From an uncultured delta proteobacterium (lineage in GTDB: Bacteria > Desulfobacterota > Binatia > UBA9968), in NCBI GenBank assembly GCA_963727625.1, contig CAVSHR010000011.1, forward strand, positions 64,001-128,000: a DNA stretch of 64,000 nucleotides, read 5' to 3'. A program made the translations under genes and the position numbers. Below the pieces are notes generated by a model. It saw nothing but the letters and a program-made list of their open reading frames with translations, had not been told where the DNA came from and made no database searches. Within the stretch, counting starts at the first letter, position 1. Each line of letters begins with the position of its first letter. Of the stretch, positions 6,445 through 30,367 are shown one piece after another.

Positions 6445-6557
6445 AGCCCTGAATTTCGCCGTTTTCAAAGACAGCCGCAGTGGCGTGGCGTCTTGCTCTC
6501 GTTTGATGTAAGAAGGCGGGCAGTGAAACATTACCGAATCCCAGGGGAGGAATAGCT

Positions 6558-8216
6558 ATGATCGCCGGCCATGCAGTCGCTCAGTGTCTTCGCAACGAGG
6601 GTGTGCGCCATGTATTCTGCGTGCCGGGCGAGAGCTATGTCGCCGTGCTCGACGGACTCTATACGACGCCGGAAATTCAGGTAATCACCAATCGCCAGGA
6701 AGGCGGCGCCTGCTTCATGGCCGAGGGCTACGCCAAGGCGACGCGCAAGCCCGGCGTGTGCATCGTCACGCGCGGGCCGGGGGCGACTAACGCGAGCATC
6801 GCGGTGCACAGCGCCAAATACGATTCGGTGCCGCTGGTCTTGCTGGTCGGACAGGTGGCGCGCTCGGCGCGCGGGCGCGAAGCGGGGCAGGAGATCGACT
6901 ACACGCATTTTTTCGGCACCATCGCCAAATGGGTGATCGAGATCAACGACGCCAGGCAGGTGCCGCGGATCATGGCGCGGGCGTTTCACATCGCGCGCAG
7001 CGGCCGTCCGGGCCCGGTGGTCGTCTCCTTGCCGCGCGACATGCTCGAGGAGGATGCGAACATCTCGATGATCGATCCCTATCCAATGTTACGCGTCGAG
7101 CCCGATCCCAAGGCGATGCAAGAAATCGTCGAGCGCATCAACGCGGCGAAGAAGCCGGTGTTGATCGCCGGCTCGGGCACGCAGTATTCCGACGCGCGCC
7201 AGGAGCTGATCGACTTCTCGGAGAAGTTTCATATTCCGGTGCTGACGTCGTACAAACGCCAGGACGCGTTCCCCAACAGCCATCCGAACTACATCGGCAA
7301 CCTGGCCAACGCCAACAAGCACACGCGCAACCTGGTCGCGAACGAGGCGGATTTAGTCGTCGTTATCGGCAGTCGACTGAACCAGCAGACAACTGCAAGT
7401 TTCGCTTTTCCCAAACCCGGACAGCCGTTTATTCAGATCTATCCCGATGAGCAAACCATCGGCCATAACCTGCGCCCCGACTCGGGCATCGTCGCCGACG
7501 CGAAAATGGCGCTGGCCGCGGCGCTCAAATTCCCGGGACCGCGGCCGAACGAGAGCCGCGCCGGTTGGATCGCGGAACATCATGCCGCGCAAAAACGCTA
7601 CGCCACACCGGCCGAGCGCCCGACGCGGCGCGTGTCGATGGAGCGGGTGCTGGTCGATCTCAAAGCCGCGCTGCCGCCGGACGCGATTACGACAACCGAC
7701 GCCGGTAGCTTCGGTCAGTGGCACCAGCGCTACTTGGAATTTGACCACGCGGATTCCTACATCTCGCCAAGCTTGGGCTGCATGGGGCCGGGAGTGCCCT
7801 CGGCCGTGGCGGCGAAGCTCGCCCATCCAGAGCGGTTGGTCGTGACCCATGCCGGCGACGGCGGTTTCCTCATGACCGGGCAGGAGATGGCGACGGCAAA
7901 ACAATACGATGCCGACATCATTGCCATCGTCTACAACAACGAAGGCTACAACTCGATCCGCATGCACCAGGTAGCGCAGTATCCCGGCCGCCCTTGCGGC
8001 AACGATCTGGTCAATCCGGATTTCGCCGGGCTCGGCACGGCCTACGGTGCTCTGGGATTGAAAGTGAATCGCGACGAGGAATTCCTGCCTGCGCTCAAGC
8101 AAGCGATGGCAGCGAACAGGTCGGCGTTGATCGAGGTATCGACCGACATGGAATACGTCACACCGACGGCAACGCTGACCGAGCTTTCGGGAAAGCCGCT
8201 GCAGGGCGGGGATTAA
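6558..8216 (+). CDS. thiamine pyrophosphate-dependent enzyme (acetolactate synthase-like family)
   Basis: VPGESY, RQEGGA, TRGPGATN, and GDGG...NN TPP-binding motif. Confidence 0.9.
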   Translation: MIAGHAVAQCLRNEGVRHVFCVPGESYVAVLDGLYTTPEIQVITNRQEGGACFMAEGYAKATRKPGVCIVTRGPGATNASIAVHSAKYDSVPLVLLVGQVARSARGREAGQEIDYTHFFGTIAKWVIEINDARQVPRIMARAFHIARSGRPGPVVVSLPRDMLEEDANISMIDPYPMLRVEPDPKAMQEIVERINAAKKPVLIAGSGTQYSDARQELIDFSEKFHIPVLTSYKRQDAFPNSHPNYIGNLANANKHTRNLVANEADLVVVIGSRLNQQTTASFAFPKPGQPFIQIYPDEQTIGHNLRPDSGIVADAKMALAAALKFPGPRPNESRAGWIAEHHAAQKRYATPAERPTRRVSMERVLVDLKAALPPDAITTTDAGSFGQWHQRYLEFDHADSYISPSLGCMGPGVPSAVAAKLAHPERLVVTHAGDGGFLMTGQEMATAKQYDADIIAIVYNNEGYNSIRMHQVAQYPGRPCGNDLVNPDFAGLGTAYGALGLKVNRDEEFLPALKQAMAANRSALIEVSTDMEYVTPTATLTELSGKPLQGGD

Positions 8217-8247
8217 GAAAAAGGGCGCTGGATTTTGTTCGTCGATG

Positions 8248-9375
8248 CTAAAGCGAATAAAATTCTTTCGGATTATGAATGAGAATCTTTTCGACTAACT
8301 CTGCTGAAATATCCTCGCGCGACTTCATCGCTTCCACCAGAGCTTTTTCTTCTGCCGGATCGTTGTGGCCGTAATCCGAGCCGATCATCAAGTGATCCTC
8401 GCCGATCTGCTCCGCCAAATAAGGAATATCCTCGTCCGCTTCGCAAGCGACGTAGATACGGTAGTCGCGGAACAGATCCTTGCACGAGGCGTGTTTCCAG
8501 CGCGCGTTGGGAAAAGACGGGCGCGGTCGCGCCGATCGCTTGAGATGATGGTACAGATACGGCACCCAGCTCGCCGACGCTTCGAGAAAACCGAATTTCA
8601 AACTTGGATACTTCTCGGGAATCTCGCTCGCCACCAGATCGCGAAAGCCGATCACCGGTGGCAGTTGCGAGGCGGCGAAGGTGCCGTTCAAGCCCAGATC
8701 GAAAAAATCGTTGATGTGGCGCGAGCTCTGGCCGGTGTGCACACAGATCGGCAGGCCGAGCTTTTCCGCTTCAGCGTAGATCGGATAGAAATGCGGATTG
8801 TTGAGTGTCAACGAACCGACGATGCCGCTGAAGAATAGTCCGACGGAGCCGTTCTTTTTCGCTTTGTGCATCTGCTCGATTGATGCGTCCACGCTGTGCA
8901 GCGGCAGCACGGCAACCCAGCGCAAGCGGCCGCGGCTCTTGGCGAACACTTGGGCTAGATAGCGGTTGTAAGCGGCGCAGAGCGCGCGCTCCAAGGCGTC
9001 ATCGTCGGTCACCTGGATGAGAAACAGGGTCGGGTAGATGATCTGGACGGCGACGCCGGCGCGATCCATGTCGGCCAGGCGGACCTCGACGTCGGTCAAT
9101 TCGCGCGACTCGCGCAGGATGTCGCGGCGCCCGGTCTCGCGCTTGGATGCCGCGGGCGTGATCAGACGGAAGCCGCCTTTGCCGGCGGCTTTGGGAAAGA
9201 TATTGCCGTCGATCAGCCAGAGCATGTTGAAATCGCCATACAACGTGTCTTCCGGAGCAGCGACCATCACCGGCCGGCGCCGTTGCATGTCGTTGTCGAT
9301 CAAGGTCCACATGCTCTGCGATTCTGCGATATGGGTGTCGGCGTCGATGATCCCGTTCATTTTCGTCTCCTCCAT
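8248..9375 (-). CDS. amidohydrolase family protein (Amidohydro_2)
   Basis: IIDADTH, ICVHTG, FLEA, GSDYGHND. Confidence 0.9.
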   Translation of the reverse strand: MEETKMNGIIDADTHIAESQSMWTLIDNDMQRRRPVMVAAPEDTLYGDFNMLWLIDGNIFPKAAGKGGFRLITPAASKRETGRRDILRESRELTDVEVRLADMDRAGVAVQIIYPTLFLIQVTDDDALERALCAAYNRYLAQVFAKSRGRLRWVAVLPLHSVDASIEQMHKAKKNGSVGLFFSGIVGSLTLNNPHFYPIYAEAEKLGLPICVHTGQSSRHINDFFDLGLNGTFAASQLPPVIGFRDLVASEIPEKYPSLKFGFLEASASWVPYLYHHLKRSARPRPSFPNARWKHASCKDLFRDYRIYVACEADEDIPYLAEQIGEDHLMIGSDYGHNDPAEEKALVEAMKSREDISAELVEKILIHNPKEFYSL

Positions 9376-9484
9376 CCGGTTGTCCCCGACTCTATCGAGG
9401 AGCGAAACTCCGGGTCAAGTGGTCGACGGCCTGTGGCGGTGCTTTCGCGGTTAAAAATAAGTCTGCCGACATTCGGTCAGCGAA

Positions 9485-9554
9485 AGATCTCTCGCGTTGC
9501 TCGATATGACACAGCCGATTTTTGGTCGTCATTCCGAGCGTTAGCGAGGAATCT
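9485..9554. repeat. inverted pair of REP-like palindromes
   Basis: AGATCTCTCGCGTTGCTCGATATGAC ... GTCATTCCGAGCGTTAGCGAGGAATCT in a divergent intergenic region. Confidence 0.6.
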
Positions 9555-9675
9555 TTCCCTGTATTTCGACGCGGGCAATCTCTGGCTGAATCAGCGGCAT
9601 TCCGAATTCTGGTTTGACAGCAAAACAGCGCGCGTGGTTAAAGTTACCGAGAATCGACGCGAGGGAGGGCGGCTT

Positions 9676-10794
9676 ATGATCGGGGGATTTCGAGTCTATG
9701 ATGCCGACGCGCATGTCAATATCGCGCCGCAAATGTGGGAAGATCTGCCGAAAGAGTTCGCCGCGCGCCGGCCGCGTCCGGCGTTAATTCACGATGGCAG
9801 CGAGCTCGGCGGGTTCACCGCCGGCTGGTTGATCGACGGCCGCATGGAGCCACACGCCTTGGGGCCGGGTTTGCAGCCGGCCACGCCGCCGCGTTGGGTG
9901 GTCGAAGGACCGGATCGCGGCTCTTTGACGCTGGTCGACCCGGAGGCGCGCATCCGCGATCTCGATCGTCTGGGGATCGATGTGCAATTTTTGTTTCCCT
10001 CCACTTTATACGCCCGCTGGACCGCGGATCCACGTTTCGAAGCGGCGCTGTGTCGCGCTTTCAACCGCTTCATCGCGCGGCAAACCAAGCCATTCTCGAA
10101 GCGCTTGAAATGGGCCGGCCTGGTTCCGCTGCGCGAACCGCGCGAATCTATCCCGGCTCTAACTGAGATGATTGAGCTTGGCGCTTCCGCCGCGGTGGTT
10201 TTCGGCACCGCCCAGGACAAGATGCTGAGCGATCCGAGCTTCACGGATTTTTGGGACGAGTTCGCCCGCTGCAAGCTGCCGCTCTGCGTGCACATGGCGG
10301 CGAGCTTTCCGCCGTTCGATAGTTGCGTGGAAACGTTTCTGGGTGCGCACGCGCTCAGCATGGCTCTGCCTGCGCAAATGGCGTTCGTGGCGTTGCTCGC
10401 TACCGGCATGATGGATCGTTATCCCGATCTCCGGATCGCCTTCATGGAGTTCGGCGCCGAATGGATTTTCTACATGGTCGGCCGCCTGGATCATTATTTG
10501 GCGCGGGACCGCGAAATCCAGCCTCAAGTGCTTAACGCGCGCATGCCGGCGCACACGATGAAGGAATACCTCCGCTCTGGACGGGTGTTTATCTGCGGCG
10601 AGATGGAAGATCCGCTGATGAAAGAGGAAATCGCGCTGATGGGAGAAGACCAATTGCTTTACTCGTCGGACTATCCCCACGGCGAGGGGCGCGAAAAGGC
10701 CGCCCAAGAGCTATTGGAAAGACGCGATATCAGCCAAGCGCAAAAGCAGAAAATCCTCCACGACAATCCGATACGATTGTTCGGTGCAGTTTGA
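9676..10794 (+). CDS. amidohydrolase family protein (Amidohydro_2)
   Basis: VYDADAH, LCVHM, SSDYPHGE; start moved to ATG 9676 after a GGAGG RBS. Confidence 0.9.
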   Translation: MIGGFRVYDADAHVNIAPQMWEDLPKEFAARRPRPALIHDGSELGGFTAGWLIDGRMEPHALGPGLQPATPPRWVVEGPDRGSLTLVDPEARIRDLDRLGIDVQFLFPSTLYARWTADPRFEAALCRAFNRFIARQTKPFSKRLKWAGLVPLREPRESIPALTEMIELGASAAVVFGTAQDKMLSDPSFTDFWDEFARCKLPLCVHMAASFPPFDSCVETFLGAHALSMALPAQMAFVALLATGMMDRYPDLRIAFMEFGAEWIFYMVGRLDHYLARDREIQPQVLNARMPAHTMKEYLRSGRVFICGEMEDPLMKEEIALMGEDQLLYSSDYPHGEGREKAAQELLERRDISQAQKQKILHDNPIRLFGAV

Positions 10795-11427: not shown

Positions 11428-12516
11428 GTGGGAATTATTGACGCGGACACTCATATCGACGAAACAGATGACACCTGGGAGTACATACAAGAGTCGGATC
11501 TGACCTACAAGCCGACGACGGCCTATCCAGCCAATCCTGACCCGAAGCTGCCGCCGGCGCGCTACTGGGTGATCGATGGCAAGCGCCAGGTTCGTTTTAT
11601 CCGAAGCGACAAGGATTCCGGCACCACCGTCGAAACGCGCGAGCTTTTGGACGTGAAGGCCCGGCTCAAGCATATGGATGAGCTGGGCACGGACATTCAA
11701 GTTATCTATCCGACCTTGTTTTTGATGGAGGCGACGGATAAGCCGGAGATCAACACGGCGATGCGCCGCAGTTACAACCGCTGGCTGGGCGAGCGGTGCG
11801 GCCAGTCGGGCGGCAGGTTGCGTTGGGTGTGCATGCCGCCGCTGCAAAATATGGCCGCGACCGTTGAAGAACTCACTTGGGCTAAGGAGCACGGCGCCTG
11901 CGGTGTGCTCAAGAAAGGCGACCGTGAGGCGGGAAAATATCCAGCCGATCCCTATTTTGAACCGTTGTACGCCGAAGCGGAGAAACTCGACTTACCCATC
12001 TGCCTGCACACCGGTTCCGGGATTCCGGATTTTTCTCCGGCCAGAGAGTTTTCCCACGGACAATTCATGCGCACGAAAGCCGCGGCGATCAATGGCGTGC
12101 TCGGGATGGTTTTGCACAAAATCCCGATCAAGTTTCCCAAGCTCCGCATCGGCTGCATCGAAGCCGGTTCGATGTGGACGCCGTTCGTGGCTTACGATTT
12201 AAAGCGGCAGGCGTTCCGGCAAAAGGGGCGCGAGTCGGTAGGAGTGCTCGGCGTGCCGCAGATCGAGCTTCCGTCCAATGTATTCAAAGACAACCGGATC
12301 TACGTCACTTGTCAGGTGGATGAAGATCTGCCCTATATTTTCAAAACCGTCGGCGAAGATAATTTAATGGTCGGCTCCGACTACACCCATCGCGATCCGT
12401 CGATGGAGCTTGAGTTCCGCAAGGAACTGCAAGCGCGCGCGGACAAGGGCGATATCCCGCAAGCGGCAATTCAGAAGATTCTCTATGACAATCCGAAGGC
12501 GTTTTACGCGCTTTAA
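11428..12516 (+). CDS. amidohydrolase family protein (Amidohydro_2)
   Basis: IIDADTH, ICLHTG, CIEAG, GSDYTHRD. Confidence 0.9.
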   Translation: MGIIDADTHIDETDDTWEYIQESDLTYKPTTAYPANPDPKLPPARYWVIDGKRQVRFIRSDKDSGTTVETRELLDVKARLKHMDELGTDIQVIYPTLFLMEATDKPEINTAMRRSYNRWLGERCGQSGGRLRWVCMPPLQNMAATVEELTWAKEHGACGVLKKGDREAGKYPADPYFEPLYAEAEKLDLPICLHTGSGIPDFSPAREFSHGQFMRTKAAAINGVLGMVLHKIPIKFPKLRIGCIEAGSMWTPFVAYDLKRQAFRQKGRESVGVLGVPQIELPSNVFKDNRIYVTCQVDEDLPYIFKTVGEDNLMVGSDYTHRDPSMELEFRKELQARADKGDIPQAAIQKILYDNPKAFYAL

Positions 12517-12639
12517 GAGCGGGCGAGGTTCCTCGCTTTGCTTGGAATGAATTTGCCCTGTGATTTCGACCGAAGTTGTTTTGACAGAATAGCGGCGGTG
12601 AATTACAGTGAATTCAAATTTAACAGGAGGAGGGCGCAA

Positions 12640-13188
12640 ATGATCGTTCTCAGCCCGGAAGGGAAAGCGAAGACTTCGGCGGCGAAAATTGCCCCGGTGG
12701 CGCGCTTTACGAGTTTACAGGGGAAAACCATCGGGGTGCTAGATAATAGCAAGCCCAACGCCGACAAACTTGCGGAACGTTTGGCTGAACTGTTGAAAGA
12801 GCGCTATGGCGTGGCCCAAGTGATCACTCGGCGCAAGCTGACGGCGCAGCAAGGCGCGCCAAAACAATATATCGAGGAGCTGGCCGCGCAGACGGATTTT
12901 GTCCTAGCCGGTCTCGGTGATTGAGGCTCCTGCACGTCGTGGAGTGTCCACGACTCTTTAGAAATCCAGAAGCGCGGCAAGTTCGCCGTGACTTTCATCA
13001 CCAACGCTTTCACGGCGCTGGCGAAATCCGAAAAGGAAGCGTTCGGGGCGCCGGATCACCCGGTGCTGGTGGTGCAACATCCGATCGGCACCGTCAAAAT
13101 CGAAGAAGTGAACAAGCGCGCCGAAGCGGCGCTCGATCAGTTGGTCGAAATTTTACTCGAGCCGAGCGCTAAAGCGAAGGTTGCGTAG
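12640..13188 (+). CDS. UGSC family selenoprotein 1 (182 aa, UGA at 12922-12924 read as Sec95)
   Basis: ORFs 12538..12924 and 12988..13188 are in frame across TGA: LAGLGD-U-GSCTSWSVHD (UxxC). AGGAGG RBS before ATG 12640; hairpin follows the UGA. Confidence 0.85.
12936..12954 (+). promoter_or_regulatory. putative bacterial SECIS hairpin
   Basis: GTCGTGGA-GTG-TCCACGAC, a perfect 8-bp stem starting 11 nt after the UGA. Confidence 0.75.
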
Positions 13189-13279
13189 TAAAAGCACTTG
13201 CAAGTTTCGGGTTTCGAGTCTTGAGTTTAAGCGGAGATTCGAAACCCGAACTTTTTGTATTGTTACTTTTCCTAATTCC

Positions 13280-13361
13280 GTCATGTCGGCGCTGGCCGGC
13301 ATCTATACTTAGTCTTCGGTTGCGCGAACCAAACCTGGATTTCCGCCTGCGCGGGAATGAC
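13280..13361. repeat. REP-like inverted pair
   Basis: GTCATGTCGGCGCTGGCCGGCATCT ... GGATTTCCGCCTGCGCGGGAATGAC. Confidence 0.5.
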
Positions 13362-13401
13362 GGATAGGAAATTCAAAGTTCCTTGTTGAAGGGGTAGTCT
13401 T

Positions 13402-14454
13402 ATGGCAACGGCAGCACTGCAAGCGGAAAAGTTCGAAATCCCGGATGATATTTGGGAAGCGCAGGAATACTTCGTCGAAAAAGGTTGGTCCGATGGGCTG
13501 CCGGTCATACCTCCGACCGAAGCGCGCGTGGCGAAGATGCTAACCGGAACTAAGCGCAAGCCTGACGAAGCGATCGGGTCTGTGCCGCCGCGTTGGGCGG
13601 TCGCCACGGTGGAAAAGATCGCCATCAACGGCGTCATGGCCGGCTGCAAGCCCGAGTACATGCCGACTTTGATCGCCGTGGTCGAAGGGCTCTGTGATCC
13701 CAAGCTCAATCTCTACGCATTGCAAGCGACCACAGGCGGGCCGGCGGTGATGGCGATTATCAACGGTCCGGTGCGCAAACAGCTCAACGTTAACGGTGGC
13801 TCCAACGCTCTCGGTGAAGGCTGGCGCGCCAACGCGACCATCGGCCGTTTCGTGCAGATGGTCAAGCGCAATATCGGCGGTTCGCTCCCTGGCACGACCT
13901 GTAAGGCGACGTTGGGCTGGCCGGGAAAATATTCCATCTGCATCGGCGAAAACGAGGAATCGAGCCCTTGGGAGCCGCTGCACGTCGAGCGCGGCTTCAC
14001 AAAGGAACAGAGCACCGTGACGGCGATCAGCGCAGATGCGTCCGTGCGTGCGTCCGATTTGGACAGTACCAAGGCCGTAGGCATTCTCACCAATTTTGCC
14101 CAGCGTATGGAAGGGCCCTCGGGGCCGGAAGCGATCATGGTGGTCTGCCCCGAGCACGCCAAAATCATCGCGGGCGACGGTTTCAGTAAGAAAGACGTGC
14201 AGCAATTTGTCTGGGAGCGCGCCGCCTATCGGATGAAGGACCTGCCCGAGGAGACTTTCGCGCAACGGGTCAAACGCCGCTCCGATCTCAAGTTGACGCG
14301 CGACAGCATTATTCCCGTGACCGATAAGCCGGAAGATATCCTCGTCGTGGTCGCCGGCGGCGACGGCTCGCAGTCACAATATATCCATGTCTGGGGCCAA
14401 GGCACGCCGGAAGGCGGGTCGACGCGGTCGGTAACGAAATTGATCAAAGCATAA
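13402..14454 (+). CDS. UGSC-associated hypothetical protein 1 (DGLPVIPPT motif)
   Basis: 350 aa; GWSDGLPVIPPT, IAINGVMAGC.PEY, QATT, NATIGR, GWPGKY, SPWEPLHVE; paralog of 15190..16254. Confidence 0.85.
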   Translation: MATAALQAEKFEIPDDIWEAQEYFVEKGWSDGLPVIPPTEARVAKMLTGTKRKPDEAIGSVPPRWAVATVEKIAINGVMAGCKPEYMPTLIAVVEGLCDPKLNLYALQATTGGPAVMAIINGPVRKQLNVNGGSNALGEGWRANATIGRFVQMVKRNIGGSLPGTTCKATLGWPGKYSICIGENEESSPWEPLHVERGFTKEQSTVTAISADASVRASDLDSTKAVGILTNFAQRMEGPSGPEAIMVVCPEHAKIIAGDGFSKKDVQQFVWERAAYRMKDLPEETFAQRVKRRSDLKLTRDSIIPVTDKPEDILVVVAGGDGSQSQYIHVWGQGTPEGGSTRSVTKLIKA

Positions 14455-14528
14455 GAGATCAAACGTTCGAGCCGTTCAATTCGTTCCAGACGTTAAAGCC
14501 GAAAAGATTATTTTTGGGAGATTCATCT

Positions 14529-15089
14529 ATGGCAACGATAAAATTTCTCGATCCGAGAGTGACGATAAATCCCAAAGACCGGCCGCTGGTGCCGGCTCTG
14601 GATACGCTGGAAAACAAAGTCATCGGCATCATCGATAACGGCCAGGCCAATTCGACAACGATGTTTCAGGAGCTGGCCAAATTGATTCAAGAAAAGTTCC
14701 AGACAAAAGAAGTGCTTTTCAAAACCAAGCCGACGCATATGCAGGGCGCGCCGAAGGCAATGATGGACGAAATTCTCAGCCGGTGCGACGCGGTGATCAC
14801 CGGTTTGGGGGCTTGAGGGTCGTGCACGTCGTGGAGTGTCCACGACGCCATCGAGCTGCAAAAGAAAGGAAAGCCGACGGTGACGCTGTGCCAGTCGATT
14901 TTCATGGAGCTGGCGCGCACCGAAGCGAAATTTTTTGGCCTGGCGAAACTTCCTTTAGTTGAAATCCCGCATCACCCAAGTGGCGGTGCGCGGCCGGGCG
15001 AACATCGAGCAGACGCAGAGGGGGCGATTAATTTGGTCAATGAGCAGTTGACGCTGGGCGGGAGAATGAAAAACTCGCAGGTGGCGTAA
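14529..15089 (+). CDS. UGSC family selenoprotein 2 (186 aa, UGA at 14814-14816 read as Sec96)
   Basis: ORFs 14514..14816 and 14880..15089 are in frame across TGA: DAVITGLGA-U-GSCTSWSVHD; GGAG RBS before ATG 14529. Confidence 0.85.
14827..14847 (+). promoter_or_regulatory. putative bacterial SECIS hairpin
   Basis: CGTCGTGGA-GTG-TCCACGACG, with the same core and spacing as copy 1. Confidence 0.75.
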
Positions 15090-15189
15090 CCTCCCACCTC
15101 GGTCCTCCCCCGAGGTGGCGGAGGAAATGAAATTACCCGATATGATCTTGATAGTGCGATTGCCATTCTAATTCGGAGCTTCGTAACAA

Positions 15190-16254
15190 ATGACTCTCAT
15201 TTCAAACGTCATCGAAGTCGAAGACACTTGGGAAGCGGTCAATGACTGGTTTTGCAAGGAAAAGCTGAGCGATGGCTTGCCGATCGTGCCGCCGACGGCT
15301 GAGCGCGTTGAGAAAATGCTCAGTGCGACGGATCGTGATCCCGCCGAGGTGATCGGGCCGATCCCGCCCAGGTGGGCGCCATGCTCGATCGAAAAGATTG
15401 CGATCAACGCGGTCATGGCCGGCTGTTTGCCCGAGTATCTGCCGGTGATCATCGCCGCGGTCGAAGCGATCTGCGAACCGCGTTTCAACCTTTATGGTGT
15501 TCAGGCCACGACTGGTTACGTCGGGCCGGCGCTGTTGCTCAACGGTCCGATTCGACGGCAATTGAACGTCAATTGCGATTCCGGTGTGTTCGGTCCGGGC
15601 TTCCGCTCCAACGCGACCATCGGCCGCGCCATGCGCTTGATTCTCATCACCGTCGGCGGCGGTTATCCGGGCGACACGGATCGATCGACGTTTGGTTGGC
15701 CCGGCAAGTACACCATGTGTTTCGGCGAGAACCAGGAGAAAAGCCCCTGGGAGCCGTATCACGTCGAATTCGGCTTCACGCCCAGCGATAGCACGGTAAC
15801 CGTGTTCGGCATCAACGGCTTTCTGCCGATCCACACCGCCGGCAATCGCGGCGAGCAGGCGCTCGCGTCATTGGCCGAAGTGATCAAAATGCATCACGGC
15901 GTGAGCCATCTCGACGTCGGCAGTTTCGGCGGCGGCACGCCGCTGATCGCGCTGGGCATCGAGGACGCCGAGATCATGGCGCGCGACGGCATCACCAAGA
16001 AGCAGGTCAAAGACTATCTCTGGGAACACGCGTCGTTAAAATTCTCCGAGGTCCCGGCGCGGCGCAAAGGCCATAAGAGCGACGAAGAGTTGTGCCGCGA
16101 AACGCCGAACATGACGCCGGACGGCGTGGTCCATTTGTCGACCAAACCCGAAGACATCATGATCATCGTCATTGGCGGCAAGCATCGCCATTCGGTGTTC
16201 CTGCCGATGTGGACCGGGCGCAACACTTTGTGCGTAATCAAGGGGATAAAATAG
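15190..16254 (+). CDS. UGSC-associated hypothetical protein 2 (DGLPIVPPT motif)
   Basis: 354 aa; same conserved blocks as 13402..14454. Confidence 0.85.
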   Translation: MTLISNVIEVEDTWEAVNDWFCKEKLSDGLPIVPPTAERVEKMLSATDRDPAEVIGPIPPRWAPCSIEKIAINAVMAGCLPEYLPVIIAAVEAICEPRFNLYGVQATTGYVGPALLLNGPIRRQLNVNCDSGVFGPGFRSNATIGRAMRLILITVGGGYPGDTDRSTFGWPGKYTMCFGENQEKSPWEPYHVEFGFTPSDSTVTVFGINGFLPIHTAGNRGEQALASLAEVIKMHHGVSHLDVGSFGGGTPLIALGIEDAEIMARDGITKKQVKDYLWEHASLKFSEVPARRKGHKSDEELCRETPNMTPDGVVHLSTKPEDIMIIVIGGKHRHSVFLPMWTGRNTLCVIKGIK

Positions 16255-16277: not shown

Positions 16278-17279
16278 ATGCATCAGATTGGGCGTTTCGT
16301 CGGTTTGGTAATTTTATTGATTGCGGTTGTCGCGACGCCGTTTGCGGCGGCCCAAGACAAGGTTCGCATGGGGTTGAGCTCGGTGAGCGCATTGCACAGC
16401 GCCGTGTGGGTGGCCGAGCAAAAGGGTTTATTTCGCAAGCATGGTATCGATCCGGAAATCATCGTTACCGGGCAAGGCGGCACCGCCGGCATCGGCGCGC
16501 TGCTCGCCAACGATATTCAAATGGCGAGCTCGGCCGGCGATTCGCTGGTAGCGGCGGCGTTGCGCGGCGGCGATACGGTGATGGTTGCGGGCGTCGTCAA
16601 CAAGGGTTTACAGAGGATTGTCACGACACCAGACATCAAGGTGCCGGCGGATTTGAAAGGCAAACGCATCGGCGTCACCCGCATCGGCGCGGTGTCGTAT
16701 TCCGTTTTGCTCATGATGCTGCAGCGCTGGAAGATGACCACGAACGACGTGCAAGTCATGCAAGTCGGCTCGTCGCCGAACATGCTCGCCGCCATGGCCA
16801 AAGGGGGGCTCGACGCCGCCGTATTGACGATTCCGTCGATGTTCGTCGCCGAAGATCGGGGCTATCGCACGTTGCTCGATATGGCCGACACCGATATTTA
16901 TTATCTGCACACGATGATCGCGACCACGAACCACTATATCAAAGCCCACCGCGATGTCGTGCTGAGATTTCTCAAGGGCTACCTTGAGGGGATTGCCTAT
17001 GTGAAACAGCATCGAAAGGAAAGCGCCGAAGTCGTCAAGAAAAAACTCCGCATCGGCGCCGCTCAAGAGCACAACCTGGAGCGGTCCATCGATTTGCTGA
17101 GCGATAAATATTACGAGCAGGTTCCGTACCCCGCCATGCGCGGCGTCGAGACCGTGCTCGGTTTTGTCGAACGGGACAATCCCAAGGCAAGCGGCGCCGA
17201 TCCCAAGTCATTCGTCGATGATAGCCTGCTGCGCGAGATCGATCAGAGCGGTTTTATAAAGAAGCTCTACCAGCGCTAG
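16278..17279 (+). CDS. ABC transporter substrate-binding protein (NMT1/THI5-like)
   Basis: Signal peptide, WVAEQKGLF.KHG, DLKGKRIGVTR, FVDDSLLREI. Confidence 0.9.
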   Translation: MHQIGRFVGLVILLIAVVATPFAAAQDKVRMGLSSVSALHSAVWVAEQKGLFRKHGIDPEIIVTGQGGTAGIGALLANDIQMASSAGDSLVAAALRGGDTVMVAGVVNKGLQRIVTTPDIKVPADLKGKRIGVTRIGAVSYSVLLMMLQRWKMTTNDVQVMQVGSSPNMLAAMAKGGLDAAVLTIPSMFVAEDRGYRTLLDMADTDIYYLHTMIATTNHYIKAHRDVVLRFLKGYLEGIAYVKQHRKESAEVVKKKLRIGAAQEHNLERSIDLLSDKYYEQVPYPAMRGVETVLGFVERDNPKASGADPKSFVDDSLLREIDQSGFIKKLYQR

Positions 17280-18000: not shown

Positions 18001-18402
18001 ATGGGAAAATCGATATTAATAGTTGATGACAATCCAGTGAATATGAAGCTTATCCGGATATTGCTCGGCGGCGAGGGCTATGATGTCCAGACGGCGGCGG
18101 ATGCAGAGGAAGCCTTGCGAATCCTGCAGCAATCGCATCCGTCCATGATCCTGATGGACATCCAGTTGCCGGGGATTGACGGTCTGGAGCTTACGCGGCG
18201 CCTCAAAGGGGACCCCCTGACACGCGATATTCGTATCTTGGGGTTGACCGCTTATGCCATGAAAGGGGACGAAGAGAGAATTTTAGCCGCCGGTTGCGAC
18301 GGCTACATTGCCAAGCCCATCGACACGCGCTCTCTACCGGGCGTCATAGAGAGCTATCTCGAACTTGATCCAGTGAAAAAGCCTACAGCGGCGCGTTTGT
18401 GA
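18001..18402 (+). CDS. single-domain response regulator (DivK/CheY-like)
   Basis: ILIVDD, LMDIQLPG, TAYAMKGD, AGCDGYIAKPI. Confidence 0.9.
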   Translation: MGKSILIVDDNPVNMKLIRILLGGEGYDVQTAADAEEALRILQQSHPSMILMDIQLPGIDGLELTRRLKGDPLTRDIRILGLTAYAMKGDEERILAAGCDGYIAKPIDTRSLPGVIESYLELDPVKKPTAARL

Positions 18403-18437
18403 TAGCGACCCATGGCAATCCGTGCGAATACACCTCA

Positions 18438-21161
18438 ATGAAAATTCTTGTTGTTGAAGATAACCCGTTATCGAGGAAGTTTACCCGAGTCGCGCTAGAA
18501 GCTGATGGTTTTTCCGTGGTCGAAGCGAAGGACGGGCAGTCCGCCATCGCGAGCCTTGAACGCGAGCTTCCGAATCTAATTTTGCAGGATATTCTGCTTC
18601 CCGATATCGACGGATTCGAGCTCGTGAACCGATTGCACGCCGTGCCCGGCGCGGAATCCATTCCAATCCTGGCGTTGACTGGATTGATCAGCAAGAACGG
18701 TGAAACCAAGCTGCCGCAGGCTGCCTTCGAGGATTATCTGTTCAAGCCGGTTGACCCGGTGTTTCTAACCAGCACCGTGCGCGCCCATTTGGCGGCGAAT
18801 CAGACTTCGAAGCAAAAGCCGGGGCAAGGGCTCGTCATTCTTGCGGTCGACGATGACCCGAGGCAGCTCAAGCTTCTGGCGACCTATTTAGGCAACCTCG
18901 GCTTTGGCGTGACCACGGCTAAAGACGGTAATGAAGCGTTGAGGAAAGCCTCAGCGACGCTGCCCGACGCTATAATTTCGGATGTTTTGATGCCCGGGCT
19001 CGACGGTTTCGAGCTGTGTAGGGCGATCCGAAAACATGACCGGCTCGGGCTGATTCCGGTAATCTTACTGACCAATAGTTACTACGACTCAGCTGACAAG
19101 CGGATGGCGGCGGAGATTGGCGCCAACGCGCTGGTGATGCGCACACCGGACTGCAAGGACGGCGTGAAAGCCCTGCTCCACAGCCTTGTTGATCCCGCCC
19201 CGGTGCCGATGCCCGATGAAAGCGGATTTGAATCCCTGCACCGTGATAGTTTGATGCGACAGCTCAATCGCCAGGCGAAGCTCAACGTCGACTTAGCGCG
19301 CCGCTGCGCGGTGCAGAGCGCCCAGATCGCCGTCCTTGCCAGCGTGGCGCAAAGCTTTTTGCGCTCCGGGGAAAACATCGAAAGCCTCTTGTCCGAAATT
19401 CTCGCCCATTACATGGCGGTTATCGGTTTTTCGCGCGGCGTCGTCTATCTGATGGATCAAGACTCGGTCCTGAAGCTGTCAGGTCAGATTGGATTTTTCA
19501 CAAGCAGCGAAAATGCCTTGACAGACTTTTTCGGCTGCAGCGATCTCTTATATTCAACCATGGCGCAGAAAGAACCGGTGGTCTTCAGCGCGCCAGCCGT
19601 CGAGGAAAAATATCAAACCCTGCTGGACCGCTCCGGGGTGCGCTCCGTGCTCCTCGCTCCGCTCGCCTTCAATGACCGCGCGCTCGGCGCCATCGGATTG
19701 TTTTCCGATAGCCGACAGCTATATCCCGAATGGATTAGCTTTTCGAAATTGATTAACGGCCAAATCAGCCAAGCGGTGGCGCTGTGGCAAACGATTTCTC
19801 AATTGAAATTTTTGGCCGCCTATGATCCTTTGACCGCTTTGCCGAACCGGGCTCGGATGGCCAAACGGGTGGATGAAATCCTCGATCGAGGGGACAGTTC
19901 GGCCGAGGTTGCATTGTTGCGGATCAACATCGATCGATTCGAAGAAATCAACAATGCGCTCAGTTATCAAAAAGGCGATGAATTGTTGCGCCAGTTCGCG
20001 GCCAGGCTTCAAAAATCCGTTCGTAACGCCGACCTGTTGGCGCGGCTCGATGCCGATGAATTCGCCGTGGTGCTTTCGGGAAACGGTGTCGCGCAGCAGG
20101 TGCCGGAAACCGCCCGGTTGATTTTCGCCGCATTGGAAGCGCCGTTCACCATCGATCATCTTCCGTTGGAAGTTAACGCGAGCATCGGCGTGGCGCTGGC
20201 GCCCGAGCATGCGACGAACGCCGAAGATTTGCTGCGTCGGAGCGATATGGCAATGCGGGCGGCGAAGCGCTCGGTTTCGGGTTATTCTATTTACACAACG
20301 GCCATCGACAAATACGATCCGCAGCGTTTAACGCTGATGGGCGAGCTCAGTTACGCCATCGATCACGACGAGCTTGCACTCTTTTATCAGCCGAAGATTA
20401 GCTTTAAAAGCAACCGGATCGTCGGTGTCGAAGCACTGCTGCGCTGGTACCATCCGCAACGGGGCATGGTCGCACCGGATGAGTTCATACCGCTCGCCGA
20501 AAAAACCGGCGCGATCCAAAGACTCACTCAATGGGTGTTCACCAAAGCGATCCGACAAGCGGCACTCTGGCGTCGCGCTGGGATTCCGCTCAAAGTTTCG
20601 CTTAATCTATCGGTGCGCAATCTGCTCGAGCCGACGTTCCCGAACCGGATGATGTCGATCATCGAAAGCGAGGGCGCCGGGGTTGATGGCATCACCATGG
20701 AGATCACCGAAAGCGCCTTGATGGCGGACCCGGCGACGGCGAGAAAAGTGCTGATCGTTTTGAGTGAGCGAGGTCTGCATTTTTCGATCGATGATTTCGG
20801 CACGGGTTATTCCTCGCTAGCCTACCTCAAGCATTTGCCGGTGGGCGAAATTAAAATAGATAAACTGTTTGTCGCCAAACTAAACACCGACGCGGACGAC
20901 AGCGCCATCGTGCGTTCGACCATCGAGCTCGGCCATAACCTTGGTCTCTCCGTGACCGCGGAAGGGGTCGAAGACGAGCAGACCTGGGCGAGGCTGGCCG
21001 AGCTGGGGTGCGATGAGGCGCAGGGATATTACATGAGTCGGCCGCTCCCTTTGGATCAACTGGAGCGCTGGCTGATCGAATCGCAGTGGGGTGTGCAACC
21101 GGCACTTGATGGCGCGAAGGTCCAAGCGCCATTGAGTGACGCAAACTTGAGACCTCTTTAA
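18438..21161 (+). CDS. REC-REC-GAF-GGDEF(degenerate)-EAL c-di-GMP phosphodiesterase
   Basis: Two receiver domains, RLDADEF, VEALLRW, IDDFGTGYSSL. Confidence 0.9.
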   Translation: MKILVVEDNPLSRKFTRVALEADGFSVVEAKDGQSAIASLERELPNLILQDILLPDIDGFELVNRLHAVPGAESIPILALTGLISKNGETKLPQAAFEDYLFKPVDPVFLTSTVRAHLAANQTSKQKPGQGLVILAVDDDPRQLKLLATYLGNLGFGVTTAKDGNEALRKASATLPDAIISDVLMPGLDGFELCRAIRKHDRLGLIPVILLTNSYYDSADKRMAAEIGANALVMRTPDCKDGVKALLHSLVDPAPVPMPDESGFESLHRDSLMRQLNRQAKLNVDLARRCAVQSAQIAVLASVAQSFLRSGENIESLLSEILAHYMAVIGFSRGVVYLMDQDSVLKLSGQIGFFTSSENALTDFFGCSDLLYSTMAQKEPVVFSAPAVEEKYQTLLDRSGVRSVLLAPLAFNDRALGAIGLFSDSRQLYPEWISFSKLINGQISQAVALWQTISQLKFLAAYDPLTALPNRARMAKRVDEILDRGDSSAEVALLRINIDRFEEINNALSYQKGDELLRQFAARLQKSVRNADLLARLDADEFAVVLSGNGVAQQVPETARLIFAALEAPFTIDHLPLEVNASIGVALAPEHATNAEDLLRRSDMAMRAAKRSVSGYSIYTTAIDKYDPQRLTLMGELSYAIDHDELALFYQPKISFKSNRIVGVEALLRWYHPQRGMVAPDEFIPLAEKTGAIQRLTQWVFTKAIRQAALWRRAGIPLKVSLNLSVRNLLEPTFPNRMMSIIESEGAGVDGITMEITESALMADPATARKVLIVLSERGLHFSIDDFGTGYSSLAYLKHLPVGEIKIDKLFVAKLNTDADDSAIVRSTIELGHNLGLSVTAEGVEDEQTWARLAELGCDEAQGYYMSRPLPLDQLERWLIESQWGVQPALDGAKVQAPLSDANLRPL

Positions 21162-29356: not shown

Positions 29357-30367
29357 CTAAGCCAACTCCAACCCCACCACCTTCGCCGGGTTCTTCGTAC
29401 AGACCGTGTACAGCTCTTCCTGATTCAGTCCGAACGCTTCCATGTAACCGCGGACTAAGCGCATCGCTTCGACGGAGTCGGGAAAGAGCGGTTCGCCGGC
29501 GTCGCTGGAGAGCGTGAAATGCTCCGGGCCCACTTCGCGGATGGTGTTGTACATGATCTGCGGATCGACGCCGAGGAGCGGCGAGAGCTCGTCCCAGGTG
29601 AAGTTAAAGAGTATTCCAACTGGGGCGAGCTCCTTCATCATTTCCGGTGAGACGTTCAAGAACGGGCTGAACGGGTGATCGATCACCGCGCGCTTGACTC
29701 CCGCCTTGTCGACTTCCTCGGCGAGTTTGTAAATTTCCTTATGTGTTGCGTGGCCGAAAAAGAGCGCGGCATTTCGGTCGGCGCAAAGGTGAACGATGTC
29801 GCGAACTTCGGGCTTTAACTTGCCGTTTTCATCGAGATCGTAGTGGCCGACCTGCATGGCTTCATTCCACGGCAGCGGGCCGACCCAACCTGGAGTGTTG
29901 CGGCTCTGTACGAACCGCCCGTAGGTTCCCACCGTGCTCATGGTAATCACGTGGCTAAATACCGGGAGCCATACCGCGGAAATGCCGCGGTCGATCATAT
30001 CACTGACAGTCTTGGCCGAGACCGGCGCCATCTGCCGGCCGCACACGTAGCTCGACCAGCAGGTGATCGGCGTGACATCTTCTTTCTCCGCCCAACGATT
30101 GACGTCGTCCTGGACAGATTGCGTGGCTTTTACCGGATCGTCCCCGGGAATGCTCTTGAACAGCAGCCCTTTCATTTCCGCCAAGGAGGCGCGCCGGGCA
30201 AGATCGTAGGGATCTTGTTGGCCTTCATGGGTATGGCAGTGAATGTCGATGGCGTCTTTGACCTTGATGTGTGGCGGATGAACGACGCCCGGTTTGTACT
30301 GCGTTCGCGCGGCGTAGGAAGTCACGCAGCGTTCATGGGTGGGCGTGGACACGATATTTTGGGCCAT
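29357..30367 (-). CDS. DUF6282-like metal-dependent hydrolase (amidohydrolase superfamily)
   Basis: IDIHCH, LFKS, FGH, IDHP, LSSDAG. Confidence 0.75.
   Translation of the reverse strand: MAQNIVSTPTHERCVTSYAARTQYKPGVVHPPHIKVKDAIDIHCHTHEGQQDPYDLARRASLAEMKGLLFKSIPGDDPVKATQSVQDDVNRWAEKEDVTPITCWSSYVCGRQMAPVSAKTVSDMIDRGISAVWLPVFSHVITMSTVGTYGRFVQSRNTPGWVGPLPWNEAMQVGHYDLDENGKLKPEVRDIVHLCADRNAALFFGHATHKEIYKLAEEVDKAGVKRAVIDHPFSPFLNVSPEMMKELAPVGILFNFTWDELSPLLGVDPQIMYNTIREVGPEHFTLSSDAGEPLFPDSVEAMRLVRGYMEAFGLNQEELYTVCTKNPAKVVGLELA

Follow-up and report, generated by a model that had tools for sequence, protein, structure and literature searches.

What do two tandem pairs of a small selenoprotein and a larger, unnamed companion do in a catabolic island of an uncultured delta proteobacterium? 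The pairs lie on a 64,000-nucleotide (nt) stretch of a Binatia (UBA9968) genome (assembly GCA_963727625.1, contig CAVSHR010000011.1, positions 64,001 to 128,000, forward strand; hereafter the window), where two co-oriented paralogous modules at 12640-16254 on the + strand follow one another in the order UGSC1-partner1-UGSC2-partner2. We conclude firmly that UGSC and partner are two subunits of one machine, and we propose, with a probability of about 0.6, that each module is a two-subunit selenol/thiol oxidoreductase in which UGSC serves as the redox subunit and substrate binding falls to the partner. The four open reading frames (ORFs) had been described in a first-pass annotation made from the sequence alone, and an ORF check recovered all of them where it had placed them, on the + strand:

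12640..13188, + strand: UGSC1, 182 amino acids (aa), ATG start with an upstream AGGAGG ribosome-binding site, selenocysteine (Sec) 95 in D-U-G-S-C-T-S-W-S-V-H-D
13402..14454, + strand: partner1, 350 aa, with the motifs DGLPVIPPT, MAGC, NGP, RANATIGR and GENEE-SPWEP
14529..15089, + strand: UGSC2, 186 aa, Sec96; alternative TTG start at 14514
15190..16254, + strand: partner2, 354 aa, a paralog of partner1 retaining all invariant residues of the family

Both partners contain the DGLP(V/I)xPPT motif that the annotation had claimed for them, and around the TGA codon the two UGSC genes encode D/A-U-G-S-C-T-S-W-S-V-H-D. The UGSC1+partner1 and UGSC2+partner2 modules are diverged paralogs: the two UGSC proteins share 39% identity (E 2e-40) and the two partners 43% (E 8e-102).

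The conclusion that UGSC and partner belong to one machine comes from their coupling. All three UGSC genes and all three partner genes of this genome are paired. We gathered 79 related loci from public genomes of many phyla, which yielded 77 UGSC copies including the window's two; a co-oriented UGSC gene lies within 1.5 kb of the partner in 67 of these loci. Counted by copy, 80 of 93 partners have such a neighbor, upstream in 43 cases (median gap 97 nt) and downstream in 41 (77 nt). Across 151 genomes of the phylum, 18 hold the partner, the same 18 hold UGSC and none holds only one; the copy numbers of the two families in the 18 track each other (e.g., 13/14, 11/9, 6/6). On a quick partner tree, the partner-then-UGSC order with a U-G-S-C-T-x-C motif, present in 30 rows, changes state 4 times, as against a mean of 24.4 after shuffling (0/500 shuffles). 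Orthologs at single-module loci give the pairs within the window, UGSC1 going with partner1 (as at L007) and UGSC2 with partner2 (as at L061 and L011). The first-pass annotation had treated the two families as linked, and adjacency, co-occurrence and natural fusions all bear this out. Some loci have one UGSC followed by two partners, or a partner on each side of one UGSC (G124:C3:3790-11676; L071 and L083, 7400-9900; L063, 6242-9023), and partner heterodimers may be the rule. Together with proteins made of tandem partner domains, the UGSC-partner-partner order lends indirect support to the heteromer of the two modules that the annotation had suggested.

The fusions emerged when 40 unusually long partner relatives were scanned against Pfam, and they occur in both orders. 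In 13 of the 40 a whole UGSC domain precedes the partner; in five more, Sec fusions cut at the TGA by gene callers, the partner is preceded by the post-Sec piece of UGSC; and in two the partner is followed by the pre-Sec half of UGSC. One long form joins a UGSC piece and the partner to FeThRed_B, the ferredoxin-thioredoxin reductase (FTR) catalytic domain (E 1.4e-16). Three have an AhpC-TSA/Redoxin CxxC domain in the place of UGSC, and a fourth matches Redoxin below the cut-off. Six, of ~710-740 aa, consist of two partner domains in tandem, each with three matched stretches and no Pfam match. The third copy of the present genome is itself a fusion:

L001 (G000:C7:190000-207000), 6529-9700, - strand (region with flanking genes): 553-aa Sec-containing UGSC::partner fusion, motif G-H-U-S-T-C

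It is flanked on one side by a gene for an ABM-domain protein and on the other by a thioredoxin reductase (TrxR)-like gene with a C-A-S-C motif, and in its partner part Ala replaces the Cys82 shared by the other 95 copies. A pair of GrdB-like and GrdE-like genes lies ~7 kb away.

The reading frames of UGSC1 and UGSC2 are open only with read-through of one in-frame TGA each, and nearly identical hairpins resembling a selenocysteine insertion sequence (SECIS) follow the two codons:

12922..12924, + strand: in-frame TGA as Sec, UGSC1 codon 95
12935..12955, + strand: SECIS-like hairpin of UGSC1, 9-bp stem with a GUG loop, 13 nt 3' of the TGA
14814..14816, + strand: in-frame TGA as Sec, UGSC2 codon 96
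14827..14847, + strand: SECIS-like hairpin of UGSC2, 13 nt 3' of the TGA; 64-nt stretch at -21.9 kcal/mol, z -2.07

The TGA is in frame in 75 of the 77 partner-adjacent UGSC copies (U-G-S-C in 65, U-G-G-C in 5, U-G-A-C in 4 and U-G-T-S in 1), the remaining two being degenerate. For 71 sequences of 66 nt each from the TGA, 84.5% of cells were paired in the hairpin, compared with 77.0% after shuffling (0/500) and at most 49% in slid controls; the covariation score was 0.225 versus 0.102 (0/500). The pair formed by columns 21 and 27 (window 12942/12948 and 14834/14840) is G-C in 36 sequences and C-G in 35, and a Trp-to-Cys difference in the motif (TGG vs TGC) always comes with a synonymous Val change (GTC vs GTG) on the opposite arm. 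Such a pairing is hard to explain without RNA structure, and the coupled changes suggest that the SECIS structure and the protein motif constrain each other. The genome (6.6 Mb, 15 contigs) has adjacent selA, selB and selD genes on one contig (C5), the selD containing Sec; Rfam gave no SECIS family match. On this sequence evidence we take the TGA codons of both UGSC genes to be read as selenocysteine.

By profile score and motif, both small proteins are ordinary members of the UGSC family. The Pfam hidden Markov model (HMM) PF24696 matched UGSC1 with E 8.1e-48 (163.2 bits) and UGSC2 with E 2.2e-41 (142.3 bits) at a cut-off of 25 bits; for NCBIfam NF041046 (cut-off 125 bits) UGSC1 scored above the threshold (139.2) and UGSC2 below it (112.5). 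The UGSC1 model has five beta-alpha units and a mean predicted local distance difference test (pLDDT) score of 90.9. Foldseek placed the model among generic three-layer alpha/beta structures of the PDB only (best E 1.5e-4, template-modeling (TM) score below 0.5), and the best VIA match was a de novo designed protein (Z 10.6, root-mean-square deviation 3.9 over 132 residues). The PDB matches listed by Foldseek and VIA-align are flavodoxin, CheY, SIS and periplasmic-binding-like folds; the thioredoxin fold is absent from those listed, an absence that does not exclude it. A PDB sequence search with UGSC1 gave nothing meaningful, a protein atlas queried with a natural Cys-type UGSC homolog gave no usable match, and a search from the UGSC side for longer proteins containing the domain found none, a result that the search tool itself rates as weak evidence. 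Free-standing Cys-type homologs occur in Acidimicrobiia and Streptomyces. Among sequencing runs, the sequence makes up small shares of soil, estuary and salt-marsh metagenomes, with no RNA run listed.

The first-pass annotation had drawn a parallel between the Sec region of UGSC and the C-terminal Sec domain of GrdB, and this holds at the level of sequence profiles. An alignment of 64 UGSC sequences was compared by hhalign with one of 10 GrdB-like sequences, the genome's own four plus six from three other genomes of the phylum. UGSC aligned to the C-terminal ~100 residues of the GrdB-like proteins with a probability of 95.2% (P 2.6e-8, 98 columns), Sec on Sec and with the E-x-E-(K/R)-x-G-x-P-x-V and PHP-x-G motifs in register. 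A reversed template gave P 0.074 and the best of 20 column shuffles P 0.087; masking the four motif columns still left P 1.1e-4. In HMMER, a GrdB C-terminal HMM run against 78 UGSC sequences reached E 1.1e-8, versus 0.0022 for the reversed sequences. UGSC is best described, from its profile, as a stand-alone form of the C-terminal domain that bears Sec in selenoprotein B (GrdB/PrdB). A PDB sequence search with a GrdB-like protein found no GrdB/PrdB chain.

The comparison could be made within one genome, which carries its own Grd-type genes outside the window:

C6:98041-99309: GrdB-like selenoprotein gene (locus L085)
C11:162126-163400: GrdB-like selenoprotein gene (L089)
C7:189285-190604: GrdB-like selenoprotein gene (L092)
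C12:648535-649839: GrdB-like selenoprotein gene (L094)
C12:41412-41843: Sec-containing GrdA

Each of the four GrdB-like genes has one in-frame TGA and an upstream PF09338 GrdE-like gene, and in each the PF07355 match ends '...ILTST', followed by the TGA and then 'G-(T/S)-x-T-R...'. A GrdE-like gene accompanies 10 of 10 GrdB-like loci. For a lineage outside the clostridia, this many GrdB-like genes is out of the ordinary; in a sample of 61 genomes from the phylum, only 4 carry such genes. The annotation had also stated that no Grd or Prd partner is present in the window, and the four GrdB-like genes and GrdA indeed all lie elsewhere (GrdC and GrdD were not searched for).

Like UGSC, the PF07355 proteins GrdB, GrdF, GrdH and PrdB carry their Sec where a beta-strand gives way to a helix; next comes a strand with E-(I/L)-E-(K/R)-x-G-x-P-x-V and, farther on, a (P)HP-x-G motif. 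Each also works with a second, larger subunit. Unlike them, UGSC lacks the ~340-residue PF07355 N-domain: UGSC1 and UGSC2, at 182 and 186 aa compared with ~430-440 aa for the genome's GrdB-like proteins, match only PF24696, without the N-terminal/central domain. Their motif is U-G-S-C rather than the U-G-(T/S)-x-(T/N/S)-R-(C/S) of the genome's GrdB-like proteins, and their genes sit in aerobic-type catabolic islands of what appear to be soil and groundwater lineages, whereas GrdB/PrdB genes belong to Stickland operons. The companions differ as well. That of GrdB/PrdB is the pyruvoyl proprotein GrdE/PrdA; the UGSC partner shows no relation either to GrdE/PrdA-like proteins (hhalign P 0.57) or to the GrdB N-domain and GrdB-like proteins (P 0.7). 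Pfam found no PF09338 gene among the window ORFs scanned, nor among the neighboring ORFs scanned at 29 loci (L006-L034; 123 of 325 ORFs, the other loci being covered by our own HMMs for 14 families). From these comparisons no GrdE/PrdA-like pyruvoyl subunit appears to be involved. The GrdB-like system proposed in the first-pass annotation is partly supported: the Sec-domain parallel, the linkage of the two families and a predicted interaction hold, whereas the reduction or cleavage of an imported small molecule is conjectural, the genes around the modules differing between loci.

The partner family is large and nameless. Its homologs comprise 5580 representatives at 50% identity (E <= 1e-3) and more than 7000 clusters at 90%, and the source names among the matches listed read 'hypothetical protein'. 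Neither partner1 nor partner2 matched a Pfam or NCBIfam family, and partner1 had no PDB sequence match. No Pfam family recurred among 71 partner members at E <= 5 (there were 13 unrelated single matches), in agreement with the earlier description of the partner as uncharacterized, and the protein atlas returned only the query's own clusters, unnamed or auto-named 'thioredoxin family'. The AlphaFold model of partner1 is confident (pLDDT 95.3, predicted TM score 0.93). Foldseek against the PDB gave as its best match a class-I fumarate hydratase (E 4.6e-3, TM 0.22), and an exhaustive VIA search of 48,161 chains reached Z 4.1 at best. We read the predicted fold as having no solved relative, a weak or missing match being no proof of novelty. 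Conservation is sharp: D31, G32, G81, C82, G122, N144, R149 and E183 are retained in 95/95 copies and C180 in 82/95. The model puts C82 between helices H70-80 and H84-97.

A natural Cys-type fusion, P0185, was cut into its UGSC domain (1-195) and partner domain (200-549), and the complex was modeled with alignments of 12 and 83 rows, respectively. The split pair scored an ipSAE of 0.81 (median of 3 runs), compared with 0.00 for the best of 3 controls; that mark is reached by 58/80 solved complexes and 2/110 mismatched pairs, counts that are only rough with custom alignments. The contacts agreed in at least 89% between runs, with a partner-chain pLDDT of at least 86. On the UGSC side the confident interface takes in residues 11-24 (the N-terminal strand), 106-108 (the Cys equivalent to Sec and the two residues that follow it) and 110-112 (T-S-W); the partner contributes, in partner1 numbering, the PPT loop, the N76 helix and the T111 loop. 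The first-pass annotation had envisaged an interaction through the UxxC motif, and the prediction puts that region at the interface. The model supports binding of UGSC to the partner, with the redox motif placed on a conserved face.

How might such a pair work? In the oxidoreductase scheme that we favor, UGSC would be a beta-alpha domain of five strands in which a helix begins with U-G-S-C, and it would dock its U-x-x-C loop on the conserved surface of the partner to supply a selenolate/thiol pair. The partner, with a conserved pocket predicted to comprise D31, G32, the PPT loop, N76, G81-C82, T111, N144, R149 and E183, would bind the substrate and give specificity. Turnover would close the UGSC pair to an Se-S bond, which a thioredoxin-type system would re-reduce; the two diverged modules probably act on different substrates, or may form one mixed complex. 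A redox module cycling between selenol/thiol and Se-S is suggested by the exchange of UGSC for a thioredoxin-fold CxxC domain and by the FTR-like and TrxR-like genes sometimes attached or adjacent. The invariant pocket, the many diverged copies per genome and the variable catabolic islands point to the partner as the substrate-binding catalytic subunit. The redox chemistry, the Se-S cycle, the electron donor and the choice of the substrate-touching subunit are all steps that we infer.

Within the oxidoreductase scheme the target of the Sec residue could be either of two. The near-absence of Cys replacements in partner-linked copies favors an attack of Sec on the substrate, whereas the thioredoxin-fold replacements of UGSC favor re-reduction of partner Cys82; with these replacements an electron-donor role fits as well as, or better than, substrate attack. 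We give Sec reducing or resolving Cys82 a little less than an even chance, and direct attack on the bound substrate a slightly smaller one.

Methionine sulfoxide reductase-thioredoxin fusions, in which the reductase is fused to or paired with its own CxxC reductant, offer a parallel. In such thioredoxin-dependent reductases, as here, a catalytic subunit with a conserved Cys is served by a dedicated (U/C)xxC module, and the module of the UGSC system is likewise interchangeable with a thioredoxin-fold domain and linked to TrxR-like or FTR-like genes. Unlike those reductases, the UGSC module is, to judge by its model, probably not of thioredoxin fold and is almost always a selenoprotein, and its catalytic subunit has no known family or fold.

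Several observations weigh against the oxidoreductase reading. The complex was modeled on a homologous fusion rather than on the window's own pair, with a 12-row UGSC alignment and only rough calibration, and partner Cys82 falls outside the residues that touch confidently. Cys82 is in any case not universal, since the fused third copy of this genome has Ala in its place and Phe at 180. Against single GrdB-like sequences, hhalign gave UGSC a probability of only 20-34%. UGSC is missing from the vicinity of the partner in 12 of the 79 loci; these include five from Poribacteria in which the partner match ends near profile position 281. The pairwise identities of adjacent partner and UGSC proteins correlate (r 0.754, 0/1000 permutations), yet common descent inflates this r, and in tandem loci it is not clear-cut which neighbors should be paired by nearest gene. 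Reductase genes seldom lie next to the pair, a TrxR-like gene occurring in 4 of the 79 loci.

The alternative that survives best takes the GrdB/PrdB chemistry literally. The partner would activate a small molecule, the Sec of UGSC would attack its carbon with reductive C-N, C-S or C-O cleavage, and the resulting selenoether would be resolved by Cys98. This has the homology of UGSC to the GrdB Sec domain behind it. The retention of Sec in 75 of 77 partner-linked copies fits a nucleophile that Cys cannot replace, as in PrdB, whose U151C variant is reported to be inactive (PMC11229817). Up to 13-14 paralogs per genome, set among variable catabolic neighbors, also suggest substrate-specific enzymes. 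The absence of any relation between the partner and GrdE/PrdA or the GrdB N-domain, and of PF09338 genes from the neighborhoods scanned, tells against it; the Redoxin/AhpC-TSA replacements of UGSC and the FeThRed_B fusion resemble electron-transfer modules, and the Cys-type homologs of Acidimicrobiia and Streptomyces stand free. We regard this alternative as a real possibility at clearly less than even odds.

A second alternative makes the partner a pro-enzyme that cleaves itself at Gly81-Cys82 to leave an N-terminal pyruvoyl or Cys-derived group; it would be a functional analog of GrdE/PrdA with another fold, and UGSC would play the part of PrdB. G81-C82 is invariant in 95/95 copies, UGSC is homologous to the PrdB/GrdB Sec domain, and cysteinolysis is what makes the pyruvoyl group in GrdE/PrdA, PrdA requiring bound PrdB (PMC11229817). 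In the model, however, C82 sits between two helices with no obvious cleavage loop; the Ala at position 82 of the fused third copy and the lack of any sequence relation between the partner and PF09338 proteins also speak against self-cleavage, which we consider improbable. A non-catabolic role, with UGSC as a selenol carrier or chaperone (in metal, sulfur or selenium trafficking, or redox sensing) and the partner as its target or maturation factor, would suit the unconserved neighborhoods (the commonest neighbor, CoA_transf_3, is found in 17 of 79 loci) and the placing of UGSC among thiol-oxidoreductase-like selenoproteins of unknown role in the literature consulted, but is made just as improbable by the multi-copy expansions with diverged paralogs in single genomes, by the setting in catabolic islands with solute-binding proteins, CoA-transferases and amidohydrolases, and by the active site-like invariant polar pocket (N144, R149, E183).

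The favored oxidoreductase reading can be set beside what is in print. The 'UGSC-containing protein' of Zhang and Gladyshev is known as a selenoprotein abundant in aquatic samples and without an assigned function, and a 2008 paper mentions a 'UGSC/Unknown_1' fusion (PMC2398784). 'Unknown_1' may well be the partner family described here. There were 255 UGSC sequences in the Global Ocean Sampling (GOS) dataset, and the family made up 8.2% of selenoprotein genes in an updated set (PMC2398784, PMC9402790). The family, its abundance and one fusion had thus been published already (PMC1976440, PMC2398784, PMC5029168, PMC9312934, PMC9402790, PMC13188914), and a 2026 review describes the functions of such proteins as still largely uncharacterized (PMC13188914). 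UGSC was considered likely to have a thioredoxin fold (PMC2398784), in contrast to our model of five beta-alpha units with flavodoxin- and CheY-like PDB matches. In the consulted parts of the literature on UGSC-containing selenoproteins, nothing links UGSC to GrdB, names the partner family or assigns a function; the first-pass annotation had likewise known of no assigned function. Within the same parts, the GrdB link, the obligate partner, its fold and the alternative fusions were not found, and the novelty lies in reading the pair as a system.

Sequences around and between the modules were annotated as context:

11428..12516, + strand: Amidohydro_2 gene directly 5' of the modules (PF04909, E 1e-22)
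12581..12609, + strand: sigma-70-like promoter match TTGACA-17-TACAGT just 5' of UGSC1, from a consensus scan (10/12 matches; a consensus match only)
13198..13260, + strand: strong hairpin with a U-rich tail in the UGSC1/partner1 gap (-34.2 kcal/mol, z -6.44; 0/200 shuffles fold equally well)
16278..17279, + strand: NMT1/SsuA-type solute-binding protein with an N-terminal hydrophobic leader (PF09084, E 9e-27)

The hairpin at 13198-13260 has a 17-bp stem and lies inside the 213-nt gap between UGSC1 and partner1; no comparable gap or hairpin separates UGSC2 from partner2, and Rfam returned only spurious miRNA-family matches for it. It is possibly an attenuator that sets the subunit ratio, a terminator or a repeat element. 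Upstream of the modules are genes for a thiamine pyrophosphate (TPP) enzyme, three Amidohydro_2 proteins and a cupin, and farther downstream come two response-regulator genes, an enoyl-CoA hydratase, an acyl-CoA dehydrogenase and two family-III CoA-transferases. Pfam thereby confirmed the flanks named earlier, namely the amidohydrolases, the cupin and the NMT1-type protein at 16278-17279. Counterparts of the module's window neighbors (amidohydrolases, cupin, NMT1 and TPP enzyme) accompany it in only 0-7 of the 79 loci, so the linkage is not general: Amidohydro_2 occurs in 7 and an NMT1 homolog in 5. Across the same loci CoA_transf_3 is the most frequent (17), and the next in frequency are luciferase-like monooxygenase (10), TctC (9), and SBP_bac_5, TPP enzymes and MmgE/PrpD (7 each, like Amidohydro_2).

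Some features of the surroundings recur elsewhere. Downstream of the binding-protein gene lie genes for a response regulator and a REC-GAF-GGDEF-EAL protein (window 18001-21161), and the GGDEF-EAL gene is retained in a syntenic Binatia locus (L006, 9915-12581). In the same locus (85% identity), a DUF559 endonuclease-like gene is called at 6725-7174 between UGSC2 and partner2, partly overlapping the UGSC2 frame; this may be a false gene call or else an insertion. DUF6282 proteins are encoded at window 29357-30367 (- strand) and directly beside a Dehalococcoidia UGSC/partner module (L016, 3013-3861). Orthologs of partner2 with 78-88% identity (L061, L011, L006) come from metagenome-assembled genomes labeled Binatia, Deltaproteobacteria/Myxococcota and Acidobacteriota, a spread that points either to horizontal transfer of the module in recent times or to inconsistencies in binning or labeling.

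For a family long known mainly by its abundance, these results provide handles. UGSC is recognizable, at the level of profiles, as a detached GrdB/PrdB-type Sec domain, always found with one partner family in the phylum genomes sampled. The partner combines a confidently predicted fold, one without a solved relative, with a pocket of sharp conservation. What UGSC does thereby becomes directly testable on a two-protein system. The results suggest that evolution has reused the Sec domain of selenoprotein B as a module, joining it to unrelated catalytic subunits. A bolder and rather unlikely reading is that of a new selenoenzyme class, in which a portable GrdB-type selenol domain was recruited to a catalytic subunit without a solved fold relative and expanded, to as many as 13-14 copies per genome, for reductive bond cleavage on diverse organic acids. 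If true, it would extend to bacteria of soil, groundwater and ocean (Binatia, Rokubacteria, Dehalococcoidia) and would supply a role for a selenoprotein family that ranks among the most abundant unexplained ones in aquatic metagenomes.

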